A program made the position numbers and the translations under genes. Below, piece by piece: positions 23,131 through 62,791 of a DNA stretch of 64,000 nt (within the stretch, counting starts at the first letter, position 1; each line of letters begins with the position of its first letter). The notes under the pieces were generated by a model. It saw only the letters and a program-made list of their open reading frames with translations. It had not been told where the DNA came from and searched no databases. The DNA is from Octopus vulgaris (Eukaryota): NCBI GenBank assembly GCA_951406725.2, contig OX597819.1, positions 54,312,001-54,376,000 of the forward strand. Reading direction: 5' to 3'.

Positions 23131-24286
23131 GTGAAGATACTTGACATAAATTTCTTTTATGTTAAAAGTTATTTTATTTACATATTATTTTTCTATTTTA
23201 TTTAGATTTTAAATTCACTAGAAAATGGTGTCCAAGTGTTTTACACACACACACACACAAATGATCTTTATAGGTGCTACATTATTTTTTTGCTCCAGGG
23301 ATAAATACATTACTCTAATTATAAACAAGGCTATTTAATAAATGAATATCAATAGGATTCAAGGTGTGGGACTTATTCAAGATATATTTTTTATTACTTA
23401 CCTGATGTAGTACTTCCCTATTTCCTATTTTTACAGTATTTGACAGGCTTTGGAATATCTTGTGATTCTTTTAAGTTATTAAACTTTAGTATTTCAACCA
23501 TCCTGCTGCTGTGTATTTATTGTTGAACAAGATCATTATAGGTGTATATATTGTTCATACACCAGTCATATGACCAATACCTATACTGTATGGGTTTACG
23601 TTGAATGAAGGGCTAGTCTGAAACTTTATTCCCATTGTTGCCTTTTTAAGACATCCTCTATTTCATTATATTATGATAAGGTATAAATGAAAGGCTGAGT
23701 ATTTTGAATCAGGATGACAAAATTTTTGGCTTAGATCCATATATTATTCATATATACATTATTATTAGTTCCATATATTATTTTGCTGAAAATATACTGT
23801 TTTTAAGACATGTAAAAGCTTTAAGCATTAAATGGGATTTGACAAAGAGAAATACTTTTTGTAAAATAGTATCTACAAAAGGTATTCCGGTAATCATCAA
23901 AGCTAGATGACCGAGTTGTTTCCCTTTGTTTTGTAAACCCATTCTAGGTTAACTCCAAATATTTTCTACACATTTCAATATATTCAGAGTGTGCTAGTGC
24001 ACTGCATTGATATATATATATAAAAAATAATAATAAAGGAGTAAAGTGAAGTGCTTCCCTTACTGATCTCATATATGGTTTATGTAAGTGAAATTTTGTT
24101 TTGATTAGAGGAATTTTCATATTGACTTTGCTAATTATTCTCAAATATTTAAAATTTGCATTATAATTGGTAAAAGACAACAAAAACCTAGTTGTAGTTG
24201 TAAGTGAATCTCAATGAAAAAAGTTGATAATTTCACAACAAATATTTATTCACTGCAGAAATCAGAAATACACATGCAAAATTTTG

Positions 24287-24472
24287 TTACCCTTAACTAC
24301 AGAAAGTGGTTTCATTTACCAGTCTATCTTCTGTTGGAACTTTTTCTTATTTTTCATATGTCAAGTTCATTGCGGTAACACAACTTGCAGAAAATACCAA
24401 CTTGAATGTTTTGGTAGATATTTAAGTCTTACAGGAATAACCATGAAGTTTAATTTCTCAGTTTAAGGGTTA
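24287..24472. mobile_element. Degenerate piggyBac-type MITE
   Basis: Ends ttacccttaactacagaaa ... tttctcagtttaagggttaa. Confidence 0.45.
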
Positions 24473-24869
24473 ATAGAAAATCTGATCCTTGTTAGCAGGC
24501 AAGGGACATGTTTCCATTTTATTAGAAATGTAGCTGATTTGCACCTGGTCGATGAGTTGAGAAACTTTTTTTTTTTACAAGTGGAAAAAAAAATGTTTTA
24601 GCCACTAAGCTTGCATAATTACACAATATGAACCAAGGGAAATAACTCATTTGGGCCAATAATATGAACTGCGATAGATTTACTTTTTAGTAAGAGAAAG
24701 AAAAGAAAAATCAGCGGTTATTGTAAGCAACTTCCTCAGAAGAGATTTAATTTTAAGAAATTGGATATTAATTTCACGAATGCATTACTTTACATGCTCT
24801 CTTCAAAATCCAATCTTTGTTAGCCTACAGTACCCATTACCATCTCTTTGTTTACTGACAAATCCAAAA

Positions 24870-26030
24870 TTCTCAAGCATACTGTGTAAGAAGTTTGCTT
24901 CCATACCTCATCGTTTCATGTTCACTCCCACTGTGTGGTATCTTGGACAAGTATCTCCTGCTATAGCCTCAGCCTTGTAAATAGATTTGGTTGATGAAAA
25001 GTGAAAAGAAGCCTATTATATGTATGTGTGTTATATATAGATTTTCTCTTCATAAACTATGATTGTCTTTCAATCCCCTTCCCTGCCCTCTACTCAGGTT
25101 TTCGCCAGTCACTACAATCCCCACTCCCTACTTGCGCCTTCTTGGCAACACTTGACTGTGTATATTACTACCTTCGTACTTCCCTTTTCTTTACCATCAC
25201 ATCTACGCTTTGATCCTTGTTACTTGTGAGTATACACTGGCACTTCCTTTCTCTCTTACATTTTTGCTATTTCCTACTCTCTCTTTCTTTCTTACCCTTG
25301 CTCTTCCCTCTGGCTGGGTAGTCACATATCTCCTCTCTAGCAGCATATATATATCTGCCCTCATTCTTGGTCACTCTCTTTCTGTCTCTCCCTGGGTAAC
25401 CATGTACCTTCTCTATAGCAAGACACTTATTTCTCTGTCACTCTCTAACATTTCATCCTCTGACATGGGTTCCCCTCCTCAAATGCACCTGCCCCTCTCA
25501 TGATTCCTTGTCTTGCAAGCTACTTGGTGACCCTGCCAGTGCTGGTGCCACATAAAAAGCATGCAGTCCACACTGTAAAGTGGTTATTTGGAGGGGCATC
25601 CAGCTGTAAAAATCATGCGAAAACTAACCTCACCTGTGCTAGTACGACATAAAAAGCACTGAGTCCACTCTAAAAAGTGGTTGGTGTTAGGAAAGGCATC
25701 CGACTATAAAAGCCTTGTCAAAACAGACAGTAGTATAGGGTAGTTTTTCTACATGGCCAGCTTCTGTGAGCCGTCCTGCTCATGCATGCATGCATGGAAG
25801 ATGGATGTTAAACAATGATGATGATATATATAATTATGTGTGTGTGTGTCTTTATGTTTGGCCCCTGCCATCTCCTGACAACCAGTGTTGGATTTTTTAT
25901 ATTCCCATAACTTAGTGGTTTGGTAGAAGATACTGATAGAATGAGTACTAGACTTAATAGATAAGTACTGGGGTTGATTTGTTTTGCCCAAACCCTATCT
26001 GGTCAGTACCCAGTGACTGAAACGAGATAA
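24870..26030 (+). mobile_element. Nested SINE composite (tRNA-head SINE interrupted by an RTE-tail SINE)
   Basis: Head aagaagtttgcttcc...cccactgtgtggtatcttggacaag. RTE-like tail ggtgttaggaaaggcatcc...gatgttaaacaatgatgatgat. 3' part gataagtactggggttgattt. These motifs recur across the window. Confidence 0.6.
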
Positions 26031-26541
26031 ATTTCTTGAAATTATCTCCCCCTCCCTTTGAGCTCTGCTGAGAATTACTTTTGGCTTTTTACTTTTTCTC
26101 CAACTAAAAGGCAAAATGGTAAACAGTTTTTGCTGCATCATTCAAAATATAACTTTTAACAAATATATGTAAATCCATGCCATCGTTCCACTACAGTTAT
26201 TTCCCTTAGTTCATATTTTTGTTTTATTTCACAGGTATTCTATTAACAAACACTATTATAAAATACAAATGCATTCTAGTTTCAACTTGGAATTGATAAT
26301 TCTTGTATTTGTATCTCAGTATCATAACCAGTTAACCATTTCACAATGTATTTACTACTTTTAGTTAAAATGAATTGAAACTGTTATCCAGCTTTCTTGA
26401 TACTTACTGACATTATGGCATATGCATTATTTTGAGAGAATCTAAAATGTATAATCTTTTAATATAAATGTATTTTTCAGAAAAAAACCCATTTAAAAAT
26501 ATATTATAGTATAATTTTGAGATTTTCCTATCTTAAAAGGG

Positions 26542-26544
<3 letters not shown>

Positions 26545-26587
<43 letters not shown>
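26545..26587. repeat. (GT)n microsatellite, representative of many (TA)n, (CA)n and (TTA)n tracts
   Basis: Seen directly. Others lie near 2149, 8547, 27403, 28776, 35038, 40362, 46087 and 61638. Confidence 0.95.
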
Positions 26588-26592
<5 letters not shown>

Positions 26593-27279
26593 GTACAACA
26601 GCATTTACAAGTAATATTTGCTTTCAGGAATAAATTTTGGTTTGTAACAGGTATATTAACAACACTAGCTTCATTGATCATTTACCATATCATTAGTTTT
26701 TTTTTAGTTTTTAGTTGGTTTTATTTTTTAGCTTTTTATGCAATTTAATTAATTATGTATGAAATAAATAAATAGATTACTTCATTACTGAAAAATGTGC
26801 AGATTATTTTATATACAGAAATAATAAAGAATGAATTTTACCTAATAAAGGCTTACATAATTACTTAAACCTCTTATGGTAACAATGAAATCTCTTCCAA
26901 CACACTATTTGCACATTAAATGTTCATCTGTTTGTTGCAGACTTCTCTAATGTATGCCACTTAATGAAAAAGTTCATATAAGTTATATTTCATTATCATG
27001 TTTTATGTGTTTTTACCTCGTCAGTATGTGTTCTTATGATTTTACTGAAAAGTTTTATCATCGTTATCATCATTAACGATATTTGAAATATAATTATGAA
27101 AGGATATAGATTTAAGCTTGTAGTCACACTTTGAAGATTACTTTCATATCAGGACTGATTCAGAAGTCCAAAACTGTTTTAATTAATTCTTTTCTTGAAA
27201 ATCACTAAATATATTATCTTTATTTTAGATTTATATATATTCATGTATCTATGTAGCAAGATAAATTCTTTTCAATGCT

Positions 27280-27401
27280 AGGAAACTCTATAAAGGTAGT
27301 CAATAGCTTCTGCTATATTGGTAACCTAACTGGCAGTGAAAGAGGATGCTCAGCAAGCATAGTAGCTAGAGTAAGAACAGAGTGGAAAAAGTTCAGGAAG
27401 C

Positions 27402-27435
<34 letters not shown>

Positions 27436-28025
27436 GCTGGTGACATGAGAAGTCTCTTCTTTGGTGAAGGGTAGATTGTATGGAGCTTGTGTACAAAGTG
27501 CAATGCTGCATTGTAGGGAGACATGAGGACTTAGTGCTGAGGATGTGCAAGTTTGGACAGAAATGAAGCAAGTATACTCTACTGTCTGAATAATGTTAAG
27601 ACACCTATATCTGACCTTCTGTTCATACTGTAAACTTTCATCACCTTGCACACTGCCAGTTGAGGGGTCCAGTCTTGCTAGTTACTCAGTGACCTTGCTG
27701 CTGCTGGGACCATATAAATAATGTTCAGTACACTCTGTAAAGTGGTTGGCATTAGGATGGGCATCCAACCCTAGAAACTGTGCCAAAGCAGACAGTTTGG
27801 TGCAGTCTTTTGACTTGCTAGTTACTATCAAACTGTCCAACCCATGCCAGAATGGAAAGAGGACATTAAATGATGATTATGATGAATGGTGCGGTATAAA
27901 CGAGTTGAGGAAAACTAAGTATAAGAGCAATCAGTCATACTGTGCAAGAATGGCGACCAGATGAGTTTGGACATGTAGTTTGGATGATAAAAGATGGGTA
28001 AAAAAGTGCCAGGAGATCCTAGTAG
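27280..28025 (+). pseudogene. RTE-clade LINE ORF C-terminal fragment, interrupted by a SINE and (TTA)n
   Basis: Translates to NSFCYIG..GCSASIVARVRTEWKKFRKL..VKGRLYGACVQSAML and later FGHV..DKRWVKKCQEI. Confidence 0.75.
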
Positions 28026-28700
28026 ATCTACTTCCAGAGAATTTTCTTAGTATTTGAGAGAATTAATTTTCTGTGTGCTTATTGTGTTTAATGCTCCTGC
28101 ACATCTGCTGTATACAAAGTCTACCTTCTCTATTATTGTACCTGTGATTTTACTATACTTCTTGTGAGTTCATAGTTTATACTTCATGGAATTCCTATCA
28201 TGCCCATTTCTGCATATCAAACAGGGCCATTTCCCTGATGGTAGCAGAGTCCTGTCTTCTTTCTTACTAATATGTTAATCTTTGCTACATTTGAGGTTAC
28301 AATTCCAGGTTTTGCCTCCATGTCTGGAATTTCTTCTAATTCTGCCACAGATTCAAGATATGAGAACTAGGTCAATAGCATACAGGAGTTCCTATGAACA
28401 ACTGGTTTCTGACTCCTCTGCTGTAGCTTGGAGGATTATGACAAATAGAAAGAAATGAAAACTGAGCCCTGGTGGACTCTTACCTGCATGCTAAATTTAT
28501 TGCTGTTCTTGTTGACTCTTACCTTGATGATGGCATCCCTGTATATGGCTTGTACTACCCTCATCTATTCCTAGCTTCTTTAGTGATCACCAGTTTACAA
28601 AGCATGGAATCCTGTAAAAAGGCTTTCTCTAGCACACTGGCAATGAATGCTAGGTACTCTGGCTTACTACTAGCTAAATACTTTTACTGCAGTCGTTTCA
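28026..28700 (-). pseudogene. RTE-clade LINE reverse transcriptase fragment
   Basis: Minus strand gives LEKAF, HQGSV, LFVIILQA and ELLYAIDLVLI, which are degenerate RT domain 3-5 motifs. Confidence 0.75.
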
Positions 28701-28768
28701 CTGGGATGACAGCATATATTTGATATGTATATGATATGTATTTTTTTATATATTTGCTCCCCACCTTC

Positions 28769-28812
<44 letters not shown>

Positions 28813-29230
28813 ATAAAGATATATCCCTGTGTCTATGTTTTATATAAAGATATGTTGCATAGGTGCGAAATTGCATTGATCTTTTGGCCAATAACTGATA
28901 AGGATTTGGCAACCTTCTCTGTCTGTTTTCCATTTGTTTGTGCATTTATTATATTCTTTTTAACTTACATATATCTTGTATTAAGATATATGTATATATA
29001 TTTTTCATAAAATCATATATCTTAGGTGTATGTATTTCCATCTAAAAATGTATATTGTCCATATATATGTATATATGTTTATGTGTGAGAGAGTGAGTGT
29101 GAATTAGATGCAATCTTGTGCTATGTGTGTATATGTTTAAGTTTTATTTATCCTGATGAACTCTTTTTAATTTAATGCATTTTAACATTTCCTCCTTTTC
29201 TCCCTCACTTCTTTCATATTACATTTTTAG

Positions 29231-29236
29231 GCTTCG
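29231..29236 (+). CDS. APBA: 6-nt microexon (Ala-Ser) in the PTB loop
   Basis: Pyrimidine-rich AG-free zone of about 88 nt with a ttttaac branch-like motif, then tttttAG | GCTTCG | GTGAGT. Phase 0/0. Confidence 0.75.
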
Positions 29237-30799
29237 GTGAGTTATCTCATTCTTCCTTTTTTGATATTGTCTGTACAATAGTTGTAAAACATCTCACCCA
29301 TATATTTAGTTACTACTTGCTATTTATTTCTTTACTCGCTGTAATTTAAGAAAGCAATATTCAGTATTTTTCATTTAAAGCTATTTGGATGTAGAAGAAT
29401 CTTCCTTTTTTTTTTCTTTTTTTTTTTTTGGAGAATACAGTTAATATTTATTTTAATATAATTAATAAAAATACAAAAAGAAAAAATTCAAATATATTTG
29501 CGTTGTAACTGATAACTTAGCATTACCTTGTTGGAATCCTGCCACCTTCAATTTTTATTATACTATAATATAAACACTACCTTTAAGTCTTCCAATATAT
29601 TTTGAAAATTTTAATTTGATTTTAAATTGACTCTGGACAGGAAAAAAAAAAGGAAGATATTCTTATCATTTAGAATCATTTCATTTGAGTCTCTGAATTA
29701 TTTGTTGTGTGTGTGTGAAATATTATTTCTGTTGAATTTTCACTTAGTCTTAATTAGTTGTTTGTAAATTTTAAGGTCATCTTAAAAATGCTTGAAACAA
29801 ACATTCCATTCCTGGTTTTAATTTTCCATCACTTTATACTTGTATAGTTGTTTGGAACATAAGATGCATTCTCTCCTCTGTTTAGATTCTGAATTTAAAG
29901 TTTTTACATTTATATACTTATGCACAAATCAGATGACTTTATGCATAAATCAGAAGTTGTGCTTATGCAAGAAATCAGTTGTTTTATACTTGTTGTAAAC
30001 ATATTGCATTCTTCTGAAATTACCATTTTGATATGTATTTCCTCAATACACTAAAATATTTTATTTTGCTAAATAAGTGAAGTGTTTAGGGTCATGTAAA
30101 AAATATTTCTATGGCAATTTTAGTGAAGGAAAGTTACTTTTTCTTTTCTATCAAACTCATATCTGTTTATACATCTGTAAGTATGAGTAACTGAAGTTTT
30201 ATCTGTTTATCATAACATTCAAACTGGAAACCTTCATATTGTGAAACACTACTAGTTGTTGATCTTTGTTATTTTTTCTCATTTATTCAGGAAATGCATT
30301 ATTGCTTATTCATTTTGTATGTGTGTGTGTAATGTATGTGTGTTCTGTTGTTTTTCTGGCTATATAATTTAAATTTATTACCAATACAGGAAAAAGCCTG
30401 TTTCTAACCCAGAAATATGGTTCTTTCATTGTATTTTATAAAGCACCAGCTAAGCGATCATGTGTGTATGTATTATGTATACATACTAATTTGTGTGTAT
30501 CTATGTATATTTTTCTGTGCAGAATTGAAGTCAGTTACTAGAAAAGTGACAAGGATTCTTTGAGTCAAGATACATCCTGCAATTTGTGAATATGAGAATG
30601 AGTTAATAAATGCATATATGTGGGTGTATATCTGGATGTGTGTGTATGTGTGTTTACTATATGTACATATAAGATTGTGTATATATGTTTATTCCAAGAA
30701 ATTTAAATGAAGAATCTTTAGAATGTTTTGCACATCTTCACTGTATCCACTAATTAATTGGATTTGAAGGGTGTGAGTGAGTTTGCTTTGTTCTAGCAC

Positions 30800-31270
30800 T
30801 TTTGGGCTTCTATTTTCTATTTCAAATCTGTTGTTTCATTATCCAATGCATCTATGATAATTACAGGAAGACATTTAGATCCAGGATACAAAAGTTGTAA
30901 GTTCTGCATCAGTTCCTCATTGATGATCTTTTCTACAACTTTAGATGAGACATTGATCTCTATGGGCAACTAACTTATAAATTATGATAGTTGTTCCCTG
31001 TCCCCTGAAACAGTGTGAGGTCTGTTGTTTTTGCATAAGTTTGTTGTTTTTATTGGATTGCTCCACAGTATTCCTTATTTTTAAAGGTGCGGATTCATGG
31101 GTCTGGTGTGCTTTTTGTATGAGCATCAAGACAATCCTTCATGTAATAGCATTGTAAATATTTTTGGCTACACTGTCATGTCTCATGAAAAGGTAGTGTG
31201 ACATTTTGAGGCAGTTGTTGATGTAGATTGTATCTTTCCTGCTGCAATGGGCACAATCGATGTGTCCTCT
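30800..31270 (-). pseudogene. Restriction-like-endonuclease non-LTR retrotransposon fragment (R4/NeSL-like C-terminus)
   Basis: Minus strand reads RCAHC..HINNC (CCHC-like), RHDSVAK, NRP, VSCP and LPVIIDALD, with frameshifts. Confidence 0.6.
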
Positions 31271-32193
31271 CATATGTATGTATATTTGCCCATCCATTCA
31301 CATACATACATTTTTTCTGTCTATATATTTAGCCTAAAATAGTAAATGCATTTTTATAGTATTTTCTTCACTTTTACTTGATACTTTTTAACTTTTAAGT
31401 AATAAATTTTGTAAACTATTACCAAGATTTGATGTTGTAGTATGATGAAAGAATTGGCTACTAATCTTTTATTTTATCTGTCTATAAGGCCTGTTGTCCT
31501 TAATTTTCATTTAGATAGCATTTCAATTTTTTTTATATGTGAGAATGTTTTATATAGTAAGAATGTGTCAAGTTTTGAAGTGTCTTCTTTACGGTCTTCT
31601 TTTGTCAGCATTATCTGTTCACTAAATATGTGTAGTCTTTATATTATTTTGCATGCATATATTCACATTTGAAATTTTTCAGCAAAACTAATTTTATTTA
31701 TTTGTTCAAAACTCTGGAATATCATCATGTTTTATTTATTTATTTATTTATTTATTTATTGGCACAAAAATGTCTTCACATCATTATCTCAGCGTCAAAA
31801 TCATGCACTTCATTTAAACAGCCTTTAATTAGCATAATTTCAGCATTCATATGGCACCAGTCTCATTATTTTCCTAAAATTCATTGTGATGTATTTTAGC
31901 TTTATTTATTTATTTTTTTTTGTTTGTTTTGCTTTTCTATTCACTTTGATCTCAGTGATTTTATGTATTTCATATATTGTAGTTCTAGAACATTATTTTA
32001 TTATAACTTTTTGTTTAAGCACAATGTCAGTATCTCACTTTTTAACTTATTTAAGAATAAGTGAGAAATTGAGAAATATATTGTCTGTCATTTAATGAAT
32101 TTTTATGTATATTTCATACTGATACATGTTTTTCATTCATATGATCCCCTTTGATTGAATAAATATCAAAGGTACTTGTTATATCTTCGCAAA

Positions 32194-33582
32194 CACTGGT
32201 CAACAAAAATAAACTATTTTTTCTTCAGAGATGCATCCAATTGCATCCTTGGCAGGAATTCTAAGTCTTTCTTTAGCATTTTTGGACTTTAACAGTTTCT
32301 TTTATCTCATTTTTTAAAAATATTTACAGTATTTTAAATAGCATTTTATGCAGAATTTGTATATCACTTGAACTGAAACAGCCTACAGTTGATTAATTCA
32401 AACATAATTAATTTTAACCTTACTTTTATATGGTAGATTCAATTAAATACACTACACATGTTTGTGGAGAATATACATTATAATGCCTCCATTCCAAAAT
32501 CCCTGCTATCAAGTTTCTATTACATAACTATATTGATGGAATCATTCTTCTTACTCTTTGCTAATGGCATCAAGATTTTCTTGAAAGAAATTTAATGAGA
32601 CTATTAGAAGTGTAAGGTGGTTGGTGTTAGAAAGGGCATTTAGTTGTAAAAACCTTGCCAAAGCAGACACTGAAGCCTGGTGCTGTCTTCTGCCTAACCA
32701 GCCCCTGTCAAACTATCCCGCCCATGCCAGAATGGAAAATGGATGTTAAATGATGATGATGATTACACCCATTTCTTTATAGGTGTCAAGGAGTTTCTCA
32801 ATCACACTGCTATATCCAGGGAATTTATTTCTCAGAAAGTTTTCATATAACCACTCAAAAGCTTTCCAAGCTGGTAATTCCAGTGTCTTGAGCATTTGTT
32901 CAAATTCAGTACTTTTTAAAACCCCATTGATCTGCAGCCCCACAAAAGTCCACTCTTTGCACTCACATTTGGAAATTTTCCTTGGAATGGTATTCAAATC
33001 CTTTTGAATTGATTTTACCCACTGTTTTTACAAAATCTTTCATTAAATTAAATATAATATGGATACATGGTAAAAATATCTTCTTGGGGTCAACTAAGAG
33101 GACAGACTTGAAACTGGTTATTCATGGGACACATGGTGACCTTATTGGCCAGTTGCATTTAACAATGATCTTTTGTTACATGACTCCATTGTCTGTGGCA
33201 AAGCATTGATTGTTTCTTAATTTTTTTTTTTTAATCATTCAAATAGTCCACATGATCAAACAGTGCAGATTTTAAGTGGTACCCACTGCTTTTCTTGGTC
33301 TCCTATACAGCAACCAAACTATATCTAGTATATATATAGATCTCTAGTGATAGTTTAACTGTGTTCTGGATGATTTTTACATTTATGAGGAATGTTGATT
33401 AAATGGTAATGGTCTGATTGACTATTCTAAAGAATAGAAAATATTTCAAAATATATCTGTAAAAAAATACAATTGGTCTAATCTCAAAAACTTTGTTCTT
33501 CTGAAAAACTGAAGATAGCTTCAAAAGTGCTTTCTGATTCACTTAAATATACTCCCCAATAGAAATTCTTTGTTGACCAGTG
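32194..33582 (-). mobile_element. Chapaev3-like (CMC) DNA transposon relic with transposase pseudogene
   Basis: TIRs cactggtcaacaaa / tttgttgaccagtg. Minus strand LVDPKKIFLPCIHIIFNLMKDFVK..FVGLQI..AWKAF..FLRNK resembles the LPPLHIKLGLMKxFVK..FVGPQI family. A SINE is inserted at ~32610-32763. No clean TSD. Confidence 0.7.
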
Positions 33583-35033
33583 TTTACTGTTGCAAATGCT
33601 TATAATCATCAAAGCCAATCATAATATATTCCTCTAACACTTATAATACTCTCTTTCTCTGTACTCTTTTTTTCAATCTATACACACACTTACAGATTAT
33701 CATTACAAGTGTTTTCAAGTGAACATGTTTCTAAAATTATTAACTACTTCATGACTAGTATTGGAAATATTCTAAACAAAGAAGCCTTAAATCTAAGATA
33801 TATATTTGTGAGGAACTTTCATACTCAAGTCAAAAATTCTCTTTTGCATTAACATTTTGTGAAATTTTACCAAGAATATGGTAAAATTGGTTTATCCTTT
33901 ATAATCCATAAATTTTCTCTAAGAGTCAATTCTATTACTATTTGGTAATTGATAGCCATATATATGTTCTTAAATTAAGTGTCCATTATTTATTAATGGA
34001 CCTCTTTTATTTTTTCAAAAGAGTTTTACCAAGGTTCTGTTCGCTGTTTAACTCTCAGTGTGACTTTTAAGATTCACATATTTTTAGAATATGTGGTACC
34101 TTTCTTAATTTCCTAATGTGTTGTTAGTTTTCTTCTTTTATTTCCCTTTATCATTTCACTCTTTAATACAACCCTTTTCATTACATGTTCTGCTCAATAC
34201 TGAGAGAAAAGAGCTTTTTGTTTCTTTTCTGTAATTGAACAGCATGACCTTTTCCCCTCCCTTCAATAATTCTGTAGTAGTATCATCACCATGGCATGTA
34301 TCTGGCAACCTAACCACATAGCCTAGTTTTGATTTCCATTTTGGAGATTTTCTTTTACTTACCATTGATATTGTTCTTGGAAAAGGCATGAGCATGACAA
34401 TTTTCTGTTTTCCATCTCCCACTAAATCTTAAATTTCATGCCTAATAATTTTTAGGAAAGTTGCATACTATTTTATCATTAGTATTTAGAAATCATTAGT
34501 TATAATTCTTAACTTAATGTCTTGTTGCATTTATTTATTTCTCTGTATGTAATGAATTCAATTCTCTTCAAGGTCAACTTCACTTTTCATCCCTTTGAGT
34601 TGATAAAATCTACTATGCTGCTTTCCTTAAAACTCTAGTCTTGCTGGAAATTTATAAACTACCACTAAAGGTTACTGAAAGCACTGGCTAATAGATTCTG
34701 TTGTGCGATAGATTAAATACTTTAAGGTATTTAATTGCATTCAATTATGTTCTGTGAAAGTGCAAGGCCTAGTGATTAGGGGTGAAAGTGCATGGCCTGG
34801 TGGTTAGGGTGTGTACTCAATCAAGTCCATGGTTTTGATTTTCTGACCAGGTGATGCATTTCATTTCACCTTGCTCCAGTCCACTCAGTTGTAAATGAGT
34901 TCAAACAATAGCTGAAAAGTTAACCCTGTGGTGGACCAGCATCTCATTCAGGGAGTGGTGGTGTTGTAATCTCGTGCATTTATAAGCCATGGGAAACTGG
35001 TTAAGCTCTGACTTTGAGTCATAGGGCTCACGA

Positions 35034-35065
<32 letters not shown>

Positions 35066-37539
35066 CGCCCCCCCCCATATGTTCTCAGTTCAAATTTCAT
35101 TTGATATAACATGTACTTGTCAAGTAGTGCATTTGACCTAATCTTCTATAACCTTAAAATTCATGGCCTTGTGCCTATATAAAAAGTCAAAATTATACAT
35201 AAAGAATAAAGAAATAATTGCTATCCTAAAGTTGTACTAGCACAAAAAGTTGAAGGCCATTATTTGTAGGTTTTGTAATATGTACAAGGCTTTTTACTTT
35301 TAATCAATTTTAAATATGGCTGAAATAAAATTCATTGTAAATTAAAAGTTTGTTATATTTAGTGTATGTTATACATAGGCACATTAACCACAGTACCTAA
35401 TGTAAAAAAAAAAAAAAAAATAACAGCTGCTCTGACTAAATGCAAAGAAAATATTGTTGAGTCTATTGACAAAACAGAAAAGACAGAGCACAATGGCTGT
35501 GATATTTAGATGTAAAATTATTGACTTCATAGTAATAGATTCAAACTTTACTGTCCAGTTTCCATTCCTTGTTGCTAATTTTATACAAAGCCCCTAACAA
35601 TACTTGGTTCCATTTACCTGGCTGTCAAAATAAGTATTGTTCCAACTTTGTTCAGTAGCAGAAAGTACATTTAAATATAAAATTAAATGTTCTCATAACA
35701 CTCATCTTATTGATATCAACAATATGATTAATATTAAAGAATAGGTTTTCAGTTTCACTTGAATTATGTTCTTGGTTAAGTTAAGGTGTGCAGCGAACCA
35801 ATGAATGGCTTGCTGGAAACCCGTTGGAAACCAATAACATTGTTGTTCACAAAATACAGTATGTAATAATAATAAAAATAGAAAATGTGAAGCACCATCA
35901 TCTCACTTAACTTATGTACACACACACTTGAGATTTGATATTTCCTCAAAAGTCATCTCTTATTAACTCGGCTGTTTTACTTCTCTAAACATATGCATAG
36001 GATGGTGAATTCTTTTGACAATGAGCATTCAGTGTTGTTTAATCAACTGCATTCTTATTTGTGAAATAAACTTGCAAGTGATAGAGTATTCCATAGACAT
36101 ATATATCGTTACTATAATTCTCATGTCAGATCAGCATGTTAGTCTATGACAAGGAGGATCTTTGAATTACATGTGCTGTCAGAGAAAGAGTGAAATTGAC
36201 AAAGAGAAATAAGAATCAGCTCAATATTGAATTATTACTTTTATTTATCAATATTGAAAGGATGAAAGGTAAAACTGATCTCAATAAGATTTTAACACAG
36301 AGAGCCAGAATGAATTGAACAAGGCAACCCAGCTAATGACATTCTTATGACTTTGATAATTTAAAACCTCAAACTGAGGATACAAATAGACAAATAAAGA
36401 GAAAGCAAAACAATTTTATAAGTTTCCCCTTATTAATACAGTTTGTAGTGGATGTCCTGTTTAGGCAACAGATTTTCAATGAATCTGTCTGTGACCAACT
36501 TTCCAGTTCTAATCAATATTGCTTTGCAAACACATTACTTTGCTTTCCAGTTCTGAAACCTTACAAATTTGACTCCTAAAACCTAAGTAATTATTACTGA
36601 CATTGTTTGCTAATATTTTTACTGTTGATCTCATTAAGTCTCATGCTTAAAAATTTGTTTTAAGCTTATTTCATGAATTCATAGTTTATCAGTTGACAAT
36701 AGAATCTTCATTAATTAAAGATGAAAATGTTAGGATCCTCATATTAAGTCTGTAAGTTTTTATGTCTTTTAATTAGGAAAGAAAATATACCCTGCTTCTT
36801 TATCTCAGTCATACATTCAAGAAACTAAATGAATGATGACAAATTTTTGTCAATTTGCTTCTTGCAAATCTTGTCTTTTCTTTCATATAATATTGCAGTT
36901 AAATGGTTTATTTTAATTTTTCATGTTATTAAACATTTCTTCTTTTTTTAAATTTGTTTATTACCTCAATATAAGCTTAGTTGGGTTCTGAGCTTTTTAG
37001 TTCTATCAATTATCCCTTCAGTTGTAGTAACAGATTATTTTTTTGTTTTATACCAACTATTAAATTGCAACTGCTTTTATTTGCATCAGAACTCAGTTAA
37101 ATATATTTTAGAGACATTCATATGAAGCTGCTTTGCAAAACTGTCGGACTATCAATATGTAATTTTTATGCATACAACTGATAATTCATTCTTCACTCAG
37201 AATACCTTCATAGACTATTAAAATAGTGATAAAATATACTATTTTAATAATTTATGTAACTCCTCCCACAAAAATAAATTATTTTCAAGGAATTTGTTAC
37301 TTTTCAAATTATTTTGTAATTCTGAATGCCTAGTAAGGTATGTATTAAATATTTGGGTTAGCAATTAAACAAACTATTAGCTAACCTATTGTTTTTCTTG
37401 AAACTGGGCTATCTTTTAGTTGATAGTTCAAATTGATTACCTGACCATGGGCATTCTGGTCTAGATGAGAAACATCAACTTTTGTCTATTATTACTGGTT
37501 ATTCTCTAGCCTATTATTCTCCTTCATTCTCCTGGCCAG

Positions 37540-37584
37540 GGTGGTGATAAAGAGCTATCTTCAGTGCCAGCTGAGAGTTATGAG
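37540..37584 (+). CDS. APBA: 45-nt cassette exon GGDKELSSVPAESYE
   Basis: ttctccttcattctcctggccAG | 45 nt open frame, GC-richer than flanks | GAG/GTAGGT. Phase 0/0. Confidence 0.65.
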
Positions 37585-38301
37585 GTAGGTATGCAGGCCT
37601 CTATGCCAACTACTACATCTATTTTTCAACTTTTGCTTTTACTGCTTTCTCTTTTATATTGTTGCAAATATAAATATATATATATATATTCCTCTCTCCA
37701 TATATATATATATATATCAGGCTGCTGAGTGGAGAAACGACTGAAAGCATTCAATTTACTATCACAGATAAAATGTCTTGTATTTTTATTTTTTATATCT
37801 GTTGCTTTGTTTCCATTTCTCCCCCAAATTATTTTATTTTTTGCTTGTCTTTTTCTTTTCTTTTATATGCTTGTAGTTTTCTACAGAACAAGTCTCTTCA
37901 CACCATAAAATTTAATATGACATTTTCAATTGTAAAATATCATATTAATCGAATTCTTGTTAAAAGTTGAGTTTAATTGATATAGAATTTTTATTAATAT
38001 AAATTGTATAGATTTATTTTCACGTCTAAATTGAAAATATTTTAAAATCCTCTAATCTTATCTGTTACACTTAGCAGCTGTCTTGATATCTTCAAGCTTC
38101 TTTGATATTAGATTTCTCTATTGGTTTTACTTCAAAATATGTGTTGTTTTATTGGTTTTTCATTTTTTTAAAAACTTTTCACAAGAGAAAGGGATTATGG
38201 CTATTTTTAGAACGATCAGATGATAGCAAGAATTAGTTTCTTAGTATTTTAAGTGCTTAAATAACAGAAACTAGTTTGTTTATATTTTTATAAATTACTA
38301 C

Positions 38302-38520
38302 TTAACCCTTTTGTTACCATATTTCTGTTGAGATGTTCTGTGTTTCTTTCAATTAATTTTAAATAAAACAAAGGATTTAGTAAAATAACTTAGTTATCAT
38401 TAAGCTAGTGTTAGGAACATAAATTATGGGTAAGGTTTGGTGGAAGATTTTAATTTAGAACTTTTGAAAACAAGACAGAGTCAGAGGCAGTTTTAGGCAA
38501 GTTGGTATCAAAAGGGTTAA
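38302..38520. mobile_element. piggyBac-type MITE
   Basis: TTAA | cccttttgttacca ... tggtatcaaaaggg | TTAA. Confidence 0.85.
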
Positions 38521-40356
38521 ATCTAAAAGATTTTGCTACAAAGTTCATTGATTTTAATATTTATGAATTACTGGGCAACGTATTGTTTTGTAATATTACT
38601 GATAATTACTGTTGTTTCTTTTTTGCCCTCTTTTCAGAACAGGCTTGCTTGGCACTGACATGGATTTCTTTTGCTTTCATGTCTAATGGCTTTTGACCAT
38701 CAAAGATTAATTTCTCATTTCTCTAAGTGTGAAGTTTGTTCAAGAGAATATATAGTTGAGATTTTTCAGTCAAGTTGGCCTGAATATTTTTATGGATTAA
38801 GTATTTCAAACAAGATAATATTTAACAATTTTAAATCCTAATAAAAGAAAGAAGATAGTAGTCTTGCTTCTGGACATTATTCTGTCTACACTAAATTCTT
38901 TCAAACAAATCATTCTAAAGAGAGTGCAATCTATTGTTATTTTTCTTAAGCTGTAAGTTTTTAAGATGGGCTATTGCATATGCAAAAGATTTCCTTTTAT
39001 TACTGTATTTTTTCTTGTCTGCAACCTCAAATATCTATATCTATGCTCCAATAAAAATTCCTTCAAACTATTTACTATGCGCTTTGAGGTTATGTTTTCA
39101 TAGAAAACTGAACTCTTATATGAACATATCAGCCACTTTTGTTTTCAACTTCTATTCTTCATAAATACTTCATAGTCTTTGTGTGTGTCTAAAAGTTTAT
39201 ATCTAAAAGTTTTTACTGCAAAGTTCATTGATTGACAATGCTGCCACAAACATAGTTTTGACAAAGTACTAGTCAGTTCAAATATTTACGAAAGAGAGTT
39301 TGATTGTGTGAAAGCTAATACAAATTATATACAATAGTTTCTAAAATTGAACACTGATCTAATTGATCTCAAAATAATTTCAAGTTCCATTTTTTTCTGA
39401 TGTTTTTCTTCCTAACATTTATGGCTATTCATAGTAACACATAATCTTTTCCTCAAGGATTTTCTGTCTCATTTTATGCTCTAATTTTATAGAATAGTGC
39501 TTTATGGAAATTTTACACAAACTACCAATAGCTTTTAATTAGTTTTGAGATTTTTTTTTCTTTTACTGTATTTTATATGATTGGAAAGAAAACTAATTAG
39601 GTTTTTACAAATGTTAATTAGTTTTTCTCATTTTTGTTTAAAGAAAAATGTTCCTAATTGTTTATTTTGGTTTCAGGATTTAAAAATTTCTCAACAAATT
39701 AGGCTGTGAGGTTATTTTCCTTAGAGCCACATTTGATTGGCTAGTTTTGTGTAACACTGGTTGCATAACAGTGCACACACAAACACACACACACAAACTA
39801 TATTAAATAATATATTAGTGTGAATATAACAAGGCATATTAAGTTTATGACATGAACAAGAGTTTGATTCATGGAAGAAACAGCCTTGCATTAAACAAAT
39901 TTGGTTTAGCTTTAGCAGTTTGTTGGGCTTTTACATTACTATGGTCTATTTTTATAAATATTTCACATCTGAGAAAAATAATTGTGTGTAAATTTTTGGA
40001 ATCTGGTTCCAACAAATAAGACATCTCACTGTTGATTATGAGGATTTTATTGGTAAAATTGAAACCTAGATTCATGTGACTTTCTCTTTTTTTTTTTTTG
40101 TCAAAGAGAATATCAGCTGTATCAGTTTTACAACTTGTCTTATAATTGAATATTGAAGATTCCTTATTAAATTTTAAAATCAGCTGAAAACTATAGGGTA
40201 AGAATCTTGGAATTTGGAGATAAGATCTACTGTTTAGAAGAATGATTAAGATTCAGAGATAGAAGAATGATTTGAGTAATGTAACCTCTGTTGGAAGCAT
40301 TTCTTTCTCTCTCAGAATAAAAAGTAAAATATGAGATGTCTGTGTGCATTGGTGTG

Positions 40357-40402
<46 letters not shown>

Positions 40403-40404
40403 CA

Positions 40405-41994
40405 CAGTAGCAGCCATAAAATAAGGGCCAGTAAGAACAAGTTTATTGAAATAGTTATTATAGAGAATTAACAAAACGTTGAGACTAGATATTTTACACA
40501 TATTTAGATATATCTAATATCTATCTTTCATGAAAATTTCAAGTGAATGGAATAAATATTTCGTAAGTTATGAGGAAATAAACAATCTTCCAAATTGCAG
40601 TGGCCAAAAGTTAAGGGTCACTTAGAAGGAATGAACTACTAACCGAGGTGTTTGTTGTTTAGAAGACTGTTAATGGGCAAGCAGTTACTTCTTATGATCT
40701 TACATTATTGGAACATTCAGCTGTCAACATGGCAGCTTGTGAGAGACAACCAGTGTCCTGTGATAGGAAACAAAGGATTGTGTGCCTTCACCAAGAGGAC
40801 AAGTCAAATTCTGTGATTGCAATTACTGTAGGAAGGTCTACAATGAATTGTAGTTCATTTCAAGTCATCAGACTCGACAGACACTAAACCCCAAACCGAT
40901 AGACGTAAAACAGAATCATATTATGGTTAGAATGTCACAAGGGATAGGTTTAAGAATGTTGCTGAGATATCCCGTGAGTTTAGCTCCACTTCTGACGTCA
41001 ATGTATCAAGCAAAACAGTTTCTCAGGGATTACAAGGTACTAGGTTGCTTGCTCAGGCACCGGCAAAGAAACCTCTGATCTCCAAGAAGAATCAAAGAGC
41101 CTGTCTTCGTTTTGCTCATGAGCATGTCATTTGGACAGAAGAACAGTGGTCACAGATTTATTTTAGCAATGAATCAAAGTTCAGTGTGATTGGTTCTGAT
41201 GGCAGGATGTATGTCTGGCGAAGAAGTGGCAAAAAGTTATCTCGTGCATGTTTGAAGAAGACTGTGGAACATGGAGGAGGCAGTGTAATGGTATGGGGAG
41301 TGTTCTCTGCTGCTGGTCGATTTATTCCCCTACAAGGGACTGTCAATGCTGAAATCTGCAAACAGATTCTCAGACAGCATGCCCATCTATATCTCTGACC
41401 CTCGTCAGTTCAACCTCCTATCTTCATGCAGGACAATGCTCCCTGTCACACTGCGAAAAGAGTCGAAGATTGTTTGAGTGATGAAGGGGTTGATCTCATG
41501 GGCTGGCCACCTCAAAGTCTCGATCTCAACCCTAAAGAAAACGTTTGGAAGATTATTGGCGATGAGGCACAAAGGAGAAATCCAGAGAACCAAGATGAAC
41601 TCTTGGAATTATTGAAAAACGAATGGAACAATATTACTTCATCATTTTGCAAGAAATTAATTCAGTCCTGTGGTAACAGATGTCAGAAGGTCATTGATAG
41701 TAAAGGGATGGTCAGAAAATATTAGTAGTAAGGGTTTTTCTTTTTTGTTCTTGTTCCATTTTTCATGGTTTTTCTAAGTGACCCTTAACGTTTTGTTGTT
41801 GCACTTTGGAAGATTATTTATTTCCTCATAACTTACAAAATATTTATTCCATTCAATTGAAATTTTCATGAAAGATAGATATTAGATATATCTAAATATG
41901 TGTAAAATATCTAGTCTGAACGTTTTGTTAATCTTCTATAATAAATATTTCAATACACTTGTTCTTACTGGTCCTTATATTATGGCCGCTACTG
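40405..41994 (+). mobile_element. Tc1-family transposon (1.59 kb) with ~223-bp IR/DR-type TIRs
   Basis: TIRs at 40405-40627 and 41772-41994 begin cagtag, with TA on the right flank. Each TIR contains outer and inner direct repeats. Confidence 0.95.
40729..41725 (+). pseudogene. Tc1 DD34E transposase pseudogene
   Basis: Motifs KKPLISKKN, FSNESKF (first catalytic Asp changed to Asn), HGGGSVMVWG, QDNAPCH and DLNPKENVW, broken by frameshifts and stops. Confidence 0.92.
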
Positions 41995-41996
41995 TA

Positions 41997-42200
41997 TATA
42001 CGAGGTGCGTGATTGAAAAGTTCCTGGCTTTAAGGGTATTGCAAAAGACCTGGTTGAAGGCCTAACCTTCCAAGTTCTTTTACAGGGCTTAGGAAAACTG
42101 AAAGACTGCTGCAATAAGTGTGTGAATCTGAGAGGCGAATGTGTTGAATAAAATAATTAACTGATTTTCCTGTATTTTATTTTACCCAAAGCCAGGAATT
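41997..42200 (+). mobile_element. Short non-autonomous mariner derivative
   Basis: Starts tatacgagg, with inverted aagttcctggcttt / aaagccaggaattt. Internal GLGKLKDCCNKCVNLRGECVE* resembles a mariner transposase C-terminus. Confidence 0.7.
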
Positions 42201-45723: not shown

Positions 45724-45759
45724 ACTTTGGGCACTCTTCATTTTGGTAAACGATATCAG
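45724..45759 (+). CDS. APBA: 36-nt cassette exon TLGTLHFGKRYQ
   Basis: Long T-rich tract ending ttctacAG, 36 nt open frame, donor CAG|GTACCA. Phase 0/0. TGCATG (Rbfox motif) at 45853-45858. Confidence 0.7.
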
Positions 45760-52911: not shown

Positions 52912-53250
52912 AGGCGTGGCTGTGTGGTCAAGAAGCCTGCTTTGCAACCACTTGGGCAAGTGCCCTCTACTATTGCTTCAGCCAGCTAATACCTTGTATG
53001 TGAATTTAGTAGATGGAAATTGTGTGGAAGCTTGTTGTGTGTGTGTATGTATATATATATGTGTGTGTGTCTTTGTGTTTGTTACCACCACTTGACAACC
53101 AGTATCAGTTGGCTTATGTTCTTGTAACTTAACAGTTCAGCAAGAGAAGTACCAGACTTAAAAATAAGTACTGGGGTTGATCTATTTGGCTAAAACCCTT
53201 CATGGTGGTGCCCTAGCATGTCCAATGGCTGAAACAAATGAAAGATAAAA
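52912..53250 (+). mobile_element. tRNA-derived SINE composite
   Basis: Head ggcgtggctgtgtggtcaagaagc, an internal (TG)n tract, and 3' core aataagtactggggttgat...ggctgaaacaaatgaaagataaaaga. Confidence 0.65.
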
Positions 53251-53460
53251 GAAGGGTTTTATATTATTTATAGAAAATAATGAGGAATTAAGCCCGACAC
53301 CAGCAACCTTTAGTTCTTATACTCTCAGTTAACTGATTTAAACAGTAACTCTTAACATCTTGTTGAAAATTAAGTCAAAGGCCTAGTTCTGTAATCATTC
53401 TCTTAACAGAACAGCAGTGAATGATAGAGGAATAGATAAGAGTTTTCTGTTGCATTAGAA

Positions 53461-53653
53461 CAGTGGTTCCAAACCTTTTCACAGTGGTTCCCAACTCTTT
53501 TATTTTAATGAGTTTTCCCATGGACTCCTTTTAATATGCTTATCCTTATATATATATATATATATATATGAAATTTTGAATTTAGTTCACAGACCCCCAG
53601 TACTACCTTTGTGGGCCAACAGGGGTCTGCAGGCTCCAGGTTGGGAACTACTG
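53461..53653. mobile_element. hAT (Charlie-like) MITE with duplicated left end
   Basis: cagtggttcc(c/a)aac occurs twice at the left end and ggttgggaactactg at the right. The 8-bp flanks cattagaa/ctttagag match at 6/8. Confidence 0.7.
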
Positions 53654-54980: not shown

Positions 54981-55722
54981 ATAATAATAATAATAATAAT
55001 AATTGTGTACAGTGCTCAGGTGCACTACAACTCATCTAAAGTGTATATATAATCAGGTGAAGTTTCGGCGGATTTCGGAAAGCATGAGGGCCTTAAAAGA
55101 TGCAGTGTCATGGCAGTCAACAACTGATGCAGGCAGTTTATTCCATGCTTCAGCAACTCTGAGCGTGAAAAAATGTTTCCGAAAGTCATGGGAGCTGTAT
55201 TGTTTTCTGACTTTGTAGGCATGTCCACGTGTGTTAGACACATGGAGATCAAAAAGGTGTTCAGTGTTGTTGTTGGTGAGGTGGTTGATAACTTTGTGGG
55301 TGTTTACCAAGTCCGTCGCCAAACGCCGGAGCTTCAGTGAATCCATGCCCAGGAAACAAGGCGCTCAGAATATGGTAGGTGTCTGATGGAGGGTATGCGT
55401 TTGGTTGCACGTCTCTGGACAGATTCCAGGAGGTCAATGTTCTGTGCAAGATAGGGGTTCCAAACTGATGATGCGAATTCCAAGTGTGGTCGTACCATAG
55501 CTGTATACAGTTTTAAATAGATGGCTGGAGAGCGGCTAACAAAAGACCTGCTGAGTGATGCCAAGACACCCTCGGCCTTCCTGACAATCTTAGAGATATG
55601 CTTTGACCAACGCAAATACACACGATTCCATCAGTTTTGCAATACAGCTAGTGAGACTGACTGGGCGATAGTTGACAGGTGATGTGCGGTCGCCCTTTTT
55701 GAACAGAGGAATGACACTGGCT
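54981..55722 (-). mobile_element. Young CR1/L2-group LINE 3' fragment with (TTA)n tail, inserted into a SINE
   Basis: Motifs PLFKKGDRTSPVNYRPVSLTSCIAKLMES, MVRPHLEFASSVWNP, LESVQRRATK, TRGHAYK and FFTLRVAEAWNKLP. CpG-rich, with one frameshift. Confidence 0.92.
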
Positions 55723-60253: not shown

Positions 60254-61076
60254 GAATCGGTGTGCATATCTAAATTTTCTTATTTTTCTGTTCAAAGGCA
60301 GTTTTCTCCAACATACCCAGTGAACTGCATTATTTATGGAGCTAACCTTATTTTGAGCAAATTAAAATGAAGCTTGTAATAACTACGCATTCACGAAATC
60401 TAATATTTAGTAGTGTCTATACAGCTTTTGTAAATCACATGTCTTAGACATTGTTTTAGAAGAGCCATAGCTTTTTGAATTATAAAGATTTTCAGCATAC
60501 ATTCCATTAAAATTTTTGTGTAGGGAAACCAGAACAAAATTTGATATAAATAATTTTGTTTGTATATAAGAATGCTAATATATAAGTAAACTTGAGACCA
60601 TTTGTAAGAAGAGACATAATCATACAACTCTAGATTCATAGTAAATCATGAGAATATTAATTATAATAATGAACTTATGACATTTTACTAACTTAATGGT
60701 TCAAGCCAGTGAGTCAGGCTGTTATGTTTTGGTAAGATGACACTTGTATTTCTTAAAGTATTAAACATCAATGATGATGATAATACTCCATTATTGTTAC
60801 TTCACAGATTCTGATATAATTATGGTTATAATAATTCTTATTGTATGGATACCTTTTGTTTGTTCGTTTAATATCTTTTTCCATGCTAGCAAGGGTTAGG
60901 TTACAACCAGATAATATCATAACTTTTATTTGTTTTTCAAATAAGAGAATCTTAACCTTAGAAGAATTTGCAAGTGCAGAACTAGCAAATGATTTTACAG
61001 TTCTATATTTAAGAGATGAGGAATTATGTACATTATTAACAATTGACAGATATTTGTCCTCGTCTTGTTTATTGTT

Positions 61077-61122
61077 AACACAACATTTCGGCTGATATGC
61101 CCTCCAGCATTCATCAGGTGTC
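61077..61122 (-). ncRNA. Degenerate minimal type I hammerhead ribozyme motif (inverted copy)
   Basis: Minus strand reads gacac CTGATGA a tgctg..cagcc GAAA t GTT gtgtt. Stem I gacac/gtgtt is intact. Confidence 0.55.
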
Positions 61123-61404
61123 TTGGGGAAATTTCAAACCTGGGTTCTCATTCCTAAGGTATTTTTCGATGTTGTTGTTCTTGTTATTATTATTAATTAT
61201 TATTATTGTTATTCAGGTCACTGCCTGGAATCAAACTCGGAATCCACACTATATTCCCACAAGCATATGACATAGTGGTTAAGAGCGTGGGATACTAACC
61301 CCAAGATTTCGAGTTCAATTCTAGGCAGTGACTTGAATAATAATGACAACAACAACATTGAAAAATTCCTTAGGAATGAGAATCTAGGTTGGAAATTTCC
61401 CCAA

Positions 61405-61447
61405 GACACCTGATGAAGGCCGGAGGGTATATCAGCCGAAACGTGTT
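61405..61447 (+). ncRNA. Degenerate minimal type I hammerhead ribozyme motif
   Basis: gacac CTGATGA a ggccg..cagcc GAAA c gtgtt. The cleavage triplet is deleted in this copy. Confidence 0.55.
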
Positions 61448-61628
61448 AACAACAAACAAGATGAGGACAAATATCCATCAGTTGTAGATAATGTAGCAAA
61501 TGATTTGTTGATATGAAATGTCAGCAAACGTCGCCAACTATAAACAGTGACACTATCACTTGCAGCTCAGCTGTAAGCTGTGGGGGTCACTGTCTATAGA
61601 GTAGATCACTGCAGATTGCAAACTCACT

Positions 61629-61713
<85 letters not shown>

Positions 61714-62791
61714 TCACAAAAGTTTCTTTCAGTTTCTGTCTACCAAATTTCCTCACAAGGGCTACTGTGGAAGACACTTGGCCCAAGGTGCTGTGCTCTG
61801 CAATTGGAATGAACCTGAATCCATGTGGTTAAGAAGTGAACTTCTTAACTACATGAACCTTTATGATAATAATTATGTTCAGCTGTTGTAAATTCATATC
61901 ATAAATAAGCTAAACTCCACTTCTAAAGACCATTCTTGTATATTTTCCTTTCATAATTCTTTTTATTTTGAAACTGAACTTTTTTTTAATTCTGCCCCCC
62001 CTCTCCCCTTATCTCTCCCTCTCTTTCTCTCGCTCCCCCTTTCTCTTTTTTCCAGCAATTATTTTTCAAATAAACATCTTATTAAATTAGGCCATTAATC
62101 AATTATATAGCAAAATATGTTAACAGATTTTAAATTACCAACTACAGCTAAAACAATTTTGTTACGGAATTTATGTACCATATAATCTATCCACAGAATG
62201 AGCAACAAAATATTTTATTTTATTTATTTGTTTTTGTGCATTTACTGCTCATCTTGTATATATATTATTTAACAGGATACTCGTTAATCATTTTTAAAAA
62301 TGGTGTTTTTGTAAACTGGGAACAGCATTTTATTCAGTTTTTATATTTTAAAAATCTACATAGTCTAGCTTGTCAGTCTGAATAAAACATAATTCATATT
62401 TGTTAAATAATTATTTTTCAAAGTTTGCATATAAAAAGGCCTACAAAGGATGTAGAGTAACTTAAAAACCTGCCAAAAACTTTCTCTGGTAAAAAGGTAT
62501 CATTAATGGTTGATTGTTCAAAGAATTTAGGAAAACAAATCAAACTCTACAAATAATATTCTTTATAAAATAAGTTGATGTATTTATTGAAAAATACCAA
62601 ACAAAAAAAATTCTTTAATATTTCGAAATTGAGTTGAAAAATGTAAATTTGTTTTCAGATGCACTAGATGTATTGCATTTTATTGTATAATTATTTTGTA
62701 AAATATCCACCTGAAATCCATTATGTTTTCTCATCTGTTTTCAATAGGGAAAATGTTATATATATATATATTATTTTCTAATTTTATTTAG

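Follow-up and report, generated by a model that had tools for sequence, protein, structure and literature searches.

The 39.7-kb intron that interrupts the PTB domain of the Octopus vulgaris X11/Mint gene contains three optional exons, here named m1, m2 and m3, all inside the 64,000-nucleotide stretch of DNA that was analysed (the window). The exons are real and frame-preserving, and they add 0-29 residues after the first PTB helix. We give a probability of roughly 55% to the reading that their inclusion, which is likely neuronal, would switch X11/Mint off Rab6-GTP and the Golgi, with binding of NPxY cargo likely left intact. In neurons, Mint/LIN-10 proteins connect receptors and cargo of the APP family with the Golgi traffic that Rab6 drives, and a Rab6-like gene is found in the same octopus genome.

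Table 1. Exons and related features of the X11/Mint gene, in positions of the window
Feature	Positions	Strand	Size	Encoded	Acceptor/donor
Optional microexon, same gene	6563..6580	+	18 nt	PVKKNM	
Exon A, X11/Mint/LIN-10	22979..23130	+		First PTB strand and helix, end ..EAVGRIK	donor gtgaag
Intron with optional exons, X11/Mint PTB domain	23131..62791		39.7 kb		
m1 acceptor region, AG-free zone	29144..29230	+	87 nt		
m1	29231..29236	+	6 nt	Ala-Ser (AS)	tttag/gtgagt
m2	37540..37584	+	45 nt	15 aa	ccag/gtaggt
m3	45724..45759	+	36 nt	12 aa, TLGTLHFGKRYQ	acag/gtacca
Exon B	62792..62878	+		Starts APEGE.., next PTB strands	

Host gene and PTB junction

The gene belongs to the X11/Mint/LIN-10 (APBA) class, in which the PTB domain is followed by tandem PDZ domains. 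The peptide encoded by exon A is 100% identical to that of Octopus proteins containing PF00640, PF00595 and PF17820, and residues 918-1312 of one homologue (P0128) match the Mint2 structure 3SUZ (E 2e-148). Exons A and B join in phase 0, as the initial annotation had stated, and exon A has an alternative acceptor at 23009, whose use removes 10 residues.

In four of 24 sequencing runs, over positions 22700-42600, one contig per run spans exon A (22978-23131) exactly and continues past both ends. These runs carry no tissue labels, and depth in the bin of m2, zero in two of them and below 1 in the other two, is dominated by repeats and has no bearing on inclusion. Of the 181 joints, 1,233 loose ends and 6,398 pieces in this region, which ends before m3, those listed number 15, 24 and 32, respectively, and no joint to m1 or m2 occurs among them.

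Splice sites of the optional exons

All three exons are AG/GT-bounded, phase 0, frame-preserving and stop-free at the coordinates first proposed for them. They take ranks 1-3 among 1,411 AG..GT-bounded, in-frame, stop-free sense candidates of 3-60 nt, with acceptor windows of both 20 and 40 nt, under generic splice-site weights that were approximated from recall and not trained on the octopus locus. Among 1,246 antisense controls none scores as high as m1, m2 and m3 with the 40-nt window, and one scores above m1 and m3 with the 20-nt window. An initial scan that used an acceptor cut-off missed m1, which is the sole AG-Ala-Ser-GT site within the intron. No fourth exon stood out there, the best candidate of 63-240 nt being an upstream extension of m2, and when the inserts of homologues, 38 different strings including one regex artefact, were compared with the intron, convincing matches occurred only at m2 and m3.

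The acceptor of m1 has an AG exclusion zone of 87 nt, against 23-59 nt at the eight other acceptors scored; its last 40 nt are 88% pyrimidine, and branch-point-like TTAAT/TTAAC sequences lie at -64, -59 and -49 (TTAAC at -49). A long AG exclusion zone, a long pyrimidine tract and a branch point are the features given for neural eMIC microexons in PMC8797185, and m1 has each of them. A UGC near the acceptor is enriched at fly eMIC exons in the same source, as an enrichment and not a universal feature. No TGC lies within 30 nt of the 3' splice site of m1, m2 or m3, the nearest to m1 being at -55, which speaks against m1 as an eMIC-type exon.

The description of the set as a microexon cassette holds for m1; under the length definition of 3-27 nt (PMC7935315), m2 and m3 are short cassette exons beyond that range. 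The possibility that m1 is an alternative donor or acceptor of a neighbouring exon was rejected: no sequence flanking exon A, m2, m3 or exon B encodes AS, which moreover occurs ahead of m2, m3 or exon B.

Combinations in assembled contigs and protein models

Up to eight variants of 0-29 residues had been proposed, and seven of the eight combinations are found in public Octopus protein models, while a contig assembled from another cephalopod supplies the eighth. The isoforms of RefSeq Octopus sinensis LOC115212775, which are automatic computed models, have m1, m2 and m3 identical residue for residue and show six combinations among the 18 proteins listed. Thirteen of these contain all three modules, and the other five have none, m1, m2, m1+m3 and m2+m3, one each. 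The main O. sinensis cluster has 23 members, 15 of which are among those listed, so that m1+m2 and m3 alone may exist in this species too. The combination of m3 alone occurs in an O. vulgaris protein (P0117) and m1+m2 in the Logan contig P0184 from the other cephalopod, while Logan contigs P0183 and P0200 contain all three modules and m1+m3, respectively. The partial combinations of P0184 and P0200 are each on a single long assembled contig, and partial combinations recur in models of Pecten, Biomphalaria and Crassostrea.

The exons were thought to be hidden and probably missed by standard gene prediction, which the RefSeq models of O. sinensis contradict; m1 is missing from all five O. vulgaris and O. 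bimaculoides models examined. No published account of the mollusc cassette was found in paper titles and abstract openings, in a search that took in little of the subscription literature. The gene terms do not occur in the searched text, taken without supplements, of 10.64898/2026.09.05.749416, PMC12626424 and 10.64898/2026.09.14.751627, and the term Rab6 does not occur in the searched text of PMC10820826. The first of these works includes O. bimaculoides exon orthologies, and its supplements could well list m1-m3.

Among cephalopod Logan proteins, all three with inserts and none of the six without them contain the upstream 18-nt microexon (Fisher p=0.012, with rows that are not independent). 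This microexon is possibly co-included with m1; in RefSeq the two vary independently.

Conservation across animals

The initial annotation took the cassette for an expansion of this lineage, but the AS and 12-aa modules are common to gastropods and bivalves, and the 12-aa module is also found in a nemertean. Pulmonate snails, abalone and oysters have three modules each; the tally of this junction took in 182 proteins, 34 of which were excluded as unreadable there. Gastropods and bivalves have the Ala-Ser dipeptide of m1 at the same junction, and the Mint protein of Lymnaea (AAO83852) carries AS, a 9-aa module and an m3 homologue. The m3 pattern TLGxLHFGxx[YF]Q is found in gastropods, bivalves and the nemertean Lineus, with 8 of 12 positions constant over its eight variants; the examined models of Mytilus, Patella and Liolophura have no m3 homologue, through loss or possibly annotation gaps. 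Cuttlefish-like contigs contain a 14-aa homologue of m2, and none was found outside cephalopods among the homologues compared, so that m2 looks, from these comparisons, like the only cephalopod-specific module.

Insects, a hemichordate and vertebrates have optional inserts of their own at this junction, among them Ala-Leu in proteins of Bombyx, Aedes, Anopheles and Phlebotomus. The vertebrate exon named in the initial annotation is indeed there, as MAQKLAKSRKK of APBA1 in one homologue (P0304) and as a 12-aa Mint2 insert in PDB 3SUZ. Homology of m3 to the 9-aa insert of Ptychodera or to the vertebrate inserts was rejected, the sequences having no usable similarity.

Known inserts at the same junction

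The closest known system is exon 6 of mammalian Mint1/APBA1 (the Mint1 826 isoform), a frame-preserving optional exon at the ..RIK/APEG.. junction of the PTB domain in the same family, and the octopus gene likewise has its optional insert at the end of the PTB helix. According to PMC3667844, Mint1 that lacks exon 6 (aa 495-505) gains the ability to bind Rab6-GTP, as seen by two-hybrid, pulldown and FRET assays, and is concentrated at the Golgi, with APP binding unaltered. In our translation, the skip-specific primer given there reads across Ser-Arg-Ile-Lys/Ala-Pro, which is the octopus exon A/B junction. The Mint1 exon is a single basic exon of 11 aa, whereas the octopus has three modules without sequence kinship to it, and the Rab6 switch is demonstrated for Mint1 and proposed for the octopus.

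In Drosophila, the X11 orthologue X11L has a 6-nt exon (DmeEX0007022), the size of m1, which is eMIC-dependent and pan-neuronal (PMC8797185 Table S2). We infer its position at this junction from its length and from the Ala-Leu of other insects; m1 differs in encoding Ala-Ser and in its acceptor without a nearby UGC. Mouse Apba2 has a neural 36-nt exon, MmuEX0005512 (PMC8797185 Table S2), which has the length of m3 and which we infer from that length to be the 12-aa Mint2 insert of 3SUZ at the same junction; this insert is lysine-rich and has no sequence likeness to m3. Only four same-position eMIC exons are reported for fly and mouse, and X11L/Apba is not included (PMC8797185).

Proposed Rab6 splice switch and alternative readings

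A splicing switch on Rab6 coupling is the likeliest role because the Mint1 exon at this place blocks Rab6-GTP binding and Golgi accumulation and not APP binding. By analogy with Mint1 and with C. elegans LIN-10, whose PTB domain binds RAB-6.2-GTP (PMC3255976), the insert-free octopus PTB domain would bind Rab6-GTP and an insert at the junction would block it. The transfer is an analogy, since the basic insert of mammals has no sequence relation to m1-m3, and an insert of two residues such as m1 might block nothing. From the fly exon, m1 would be a neural microexon of the eMIC/Srrm234 type. The likely roles would then be a neural switch for m1, a conserved motif, maybe partner-recruiting, for m3, and a lineage-specific spacer for m2.

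In an AlphaFold2 model of an insert-bearing homologue (P0004), a helix covers residues 791-809 and the insert residues 807-835, with pLDDT below 50 over 817-840; the insert is thus predicted to prolong the helix by three residues and to continue as a low-confidence loop. A complex prediction without alignments, which combined an insert-free PTB domain (P0124, residues 908-1085), a bryozoan Rab6 stand-in (P0499), GTP and Mg, scored 0.50, and one control scored 0.41.

The conservation of m3 exceeds the need of plain steric blocking. A possible but doubtful reading is that the cassette mainly brings a gain of function, with m3 as a short motif that binds a protein or lipid and the Rab6 effect secondary or absent. 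It draws on the retention of m3 in cephalopods, gastropods, bivalves and a nemertean in spite of turnover among adjacent modules, and on the place of m3 in the predicted loop, short binding motifs usually occurring in such loops. Against it, m3 is missing from the Mytilus, Patella and Liolophura models, the reading names no partner, and the sole functional study found for the junction reports that inclusion abolishes binding (PMC3667844). A binding motif in m3 is also compatible with a Rab6 switch.

The initial annotation framed the loop variants around APP/NPxY binding, and the inserts do fall within the PTB domain. That they tune the binding of NPxY cargo (APP-like), with up to eight cargo specificities, is nevertheless improbable: a later strand and the C-terminal helix make up the NPxY groove, and Mint PTB constructs have been solved both with the insert (3SUZ) and without it (4DBB). 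In the Mint1 precedent it is Rab6 binding that is switched, APP being bound alike with and without the exon (PMC3667844). It is equally improbable that most combinations are no more than minor splice products which a permissive loop tolerates, with only all-in against all-out, or nothing, mattering, since m1 and m3 persist over molluscan classes and partial combinations occur on single long contigs and in models of three further molluscs, even if many lineages have inserts of unrelated sequence in this loop and 13 of the 18 listed O. sinensis models have all three modules.

A wider version of the Rab6 switch is offered tentatively. The mollusc Ala-Ser and insect Ala-Leu exons would go back to a single neural microexon in the ancestor of protostomes, and the same intron would have been co-opted several times among bilaterians (molluscs, nemerteans, insects, hemichordates and vertebrates) for control of Mint-Rab6 coupling. 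The stacked modules of molluscs would form a graded, cell-type-specific code, to which m3 would add a new binding motif. If this is true, the Ala-Ser/Ala-Leu exon is a rare survivor of a programme reported to be nearly completely rewired between phyla.

Significance

As a gene-finding discovery the cassette has lesser weight because its exons are already in RefSeq and other public models, and the recurrence of m1 and m3 in the sequences of other molluscs indicates that these two modules are older than the octopus. Optional exons that recur in the same intron across bilaterians lend themselves well to the question of whether short exons of neural genes' splicing programmes are inherited or gained anew. 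The octopus gene offers a natural series of eight inserts of 0-29 residues at one junction, which opens the question of whether a microexon of two residues can switch off an interaction with a small GTPase and makes the minimal insert that abolishes such an interaction directly testable.

Host gene and exon organization

The 50-residue translation of exon A is identical to Octopus X11/Mint/LIN-10 proteins, which have one PTB domain followed by tandem PDZ domains. Mapping of the O. sinensis isoform X1 protein onto the window, part of a 2.8 Gb genome, placed most of the exons listed in the table; the 6-nt m1 is too short for this mapping and its position was set separately from the window sequence. 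The two acceptors of exon A (22979 and 23009, +) differ by 30 nt, so that the 10 residues preceding strand 1 of the PTB domain can be left out, as in models from Lineus, Biomphalaria, Pecten, Ruditapes and Crassostrea.

Features of the X11/Mint/LIN-10 gene in the window
Feature	Position	Strand	Basis
Exon	6072-6181	+	isoform X1 mapping
18-nt optional microexon, PVKKNM, upstream of PTB	6563-6580	+	isoform X1 mapping
Exon	12767-12797	+	isoform X1 mapping
Exon A	22979-23130	+	isoform X1 mapping
m1	29231-29236		window sequence
m2	37540-37584	+	isoform X1 mapping
m3	45724-45759	+	isoform X1 mapping
Exon B	62792-62878	+	isoform X1 mapping

Two adjacent ORF remnants at 40931-41722 (+) presumably derive from a Tc1/mariner transposase, and those at 55028-55630 (-) from what we take to be the C terminus of a LINE reverse transcriptase. 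Short interspersed repeats lie at about 25.4-26.0, 27.3-28.0, 32.7-33.3, 38.0-38.6 and 42.0-42.6 kb, and contigs from each of the four sequencing runs compared cover these five stretches to very great depth.

Splice sites and combinations of m1, m2 and m3

The coordinates, phases and splice dinucleotides of the initial annotation all agree with the window sequence. Among 1,411 AG..GT candidates of 3-60 nt that are in frame and free of stops, m1, m2 and m3 rank 1-3 under generic, approximate splice-site weights; of 1,246 antisense control candidates, none scored equally with a 40-nt acceptor window, and with a 20-nt window one exceeded m1 and m3. m1 is the sole AG-Ala-Ser-GT site in the 39.7-kb intron, and its acceptor has an AG-free zone of 87 nt, 88% pyrimidines over the last 40 nt and no UGC within 30 nt. 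No additional exon in this intron stood out in the candidate scans.

The octopus cassette is real. The exons had been described as hidden, but they are already annotated: 13 of the 18 O. sinensis RefSeq proteins listed carry m1+m2+m3, while no insert, m1, m2, m1+m3 and m2+m3 occur once each. The three O. vulgaris models have m2, m3 or m2+m3, and the two O. bimaculoides proteins none or m2+m3, so m1 is absent from these five non-sinensis proteins. Seven of the eight possible combinations are thus represented among the Octopus models examined. The long Logan contigs taken as cuttlefish-like, which group with cuttlefish proteins or start as these do, carry m1+m2+m3 (P0183), m1+m2 (P0184) or m1+m3 (P0200), while P0197, P0198 and P0201 have no insert; m2 in these contigs is a homologue of 14 residues. 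Judged from computed models and assembled contigs, the three exons are in use, and all eight combinations are represented across cephalopods.

The 18-nt microexon, whose peptide is PVKKKT in the cuttlefish-like contigs, accompanies m1 in 3/3 insert-bearing and 0/6 insert-free cephalopod Logan proteins, which weakly suggests co-regulation; these rows are not independent, and RefSeq models combine the two exons freely.

Inserts at the same junction in other animals

The cassette is not, as had been proposed, an expansion in the octopus lineage. Both Ala-Ser and the m3 pattern (TLGxLHFGxx[YF]Q) occur at the junction of exons A and B in Haliotis, Biomphalaria, Lymnaea, Crassostrea, Pecten, Mizuhopecten and Ylistrum, with Ala-Ser as the only insert in Pecten P0238. 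Nucella and Pinctada have the m3 pattern too, as do 9 of 11 proteins of the nemertean Lineus longissimus, where none has Ala-Ser. Pulmonate snails have a third, unrelated module ahead of m3, and in C. virginica such a module comes after m3, an arrangement suggesting that the variable module was gained independently. Examined models of Mytilus, Patella, Liolophura, Owenia and Lingula have no insert at the junction.

Among 15 Bombyx proteins, seven have no insert, five Ala-Leu and three a 54-residue insert plus Ala-Leu; Ala-Leu is also present in Aedes, Anopheles cruzii and Phlebotomus. Ptychodera flava has a 9-residue insert in four of 11 proteins, a 4-residue insert in three and none in four; these two different inserts never occur together in the 11 models (P0305, P0412-P0421) and are possibly mutually exclusive. 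One bird APBA1 has MAQKLAKSRKK, and the Mint2 construct 3SUZ a basic insert of 12 residues. Most of 144 further representatives have no insert or an unreadable junction. Optional inserts of 54-81 residues at this junction (P0254, P0261 and P0263 from Bombyx, P0269 from Artemia) resemble by eye a second copy of the first PTB strand and helix, which would fit a duplication of exon A, and the Lutzomyia longipalpis model P0001 has the junction segment twice, by tandem duplication or merging of paralogues.

Earlier records cover the gene family itself, the vertebrate exon with its function, a fly 6-nt exon and the octopus gene models. Our literature search found no account of the three-module cassette of molluscs, of the m3 motif or of recurrent junction inserts across bilaterians; exon-level tables may exist in preprint supplements.

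Possible function of the inserts

In an AlphaFold2 model of protein P0004 (alignment of 85 rows), the insert (807-835) lies at the end of helix 791-809, which its first three residues prolong; pLDDT is below 50 over 817-840, and the PTB core is confident.

According to PMC3667844, the PTB domain of Mint1 without exon 6 binds Rab6-GTP and the protein gathers at the Golgi, while Mint1 with exon 6 does not bind Rab6-GTP; the exon leaves APP binding unaffected. Mint3, which lacks the same residues, binds Rab6A. The skip primer from this source, translated here, spans the same junction (Ser-Arg-Ile-Lys|Ala-Pro). The LIN-10 PTB domain of C. elegans binds RAB-6.2-GTP (PMC3255976), therefore a PTB-Rab6 interaction exists in protostomes, and the O. 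vulgaris genome has a Rab6-like gene (contig C19). A table of PMC8797185 gives the X11L 6-nt exon as eMIC-dependent and pan-neuronal and lists an Apba2 36-nt exon as neural. According to 10.1101/2023.03.23.533999, X11L exon 8 is alternatively spliced and the adjoining exon 7 has an alternative 3' site, a layout that resembles the octopus locus. The octopus inserts share no sequence with the mammalian Mint1 insert. By analogy with Mint1 exon 6 and LIN-10, and given the octopus Rab6-like gene and the X11L and Apba2 precedents, the octopus cassette is likely a neural splicing switch that would uncouple the X11/Mint adaptor from Rab6, and m3, because it is conserved, may bind a putative partner as well.
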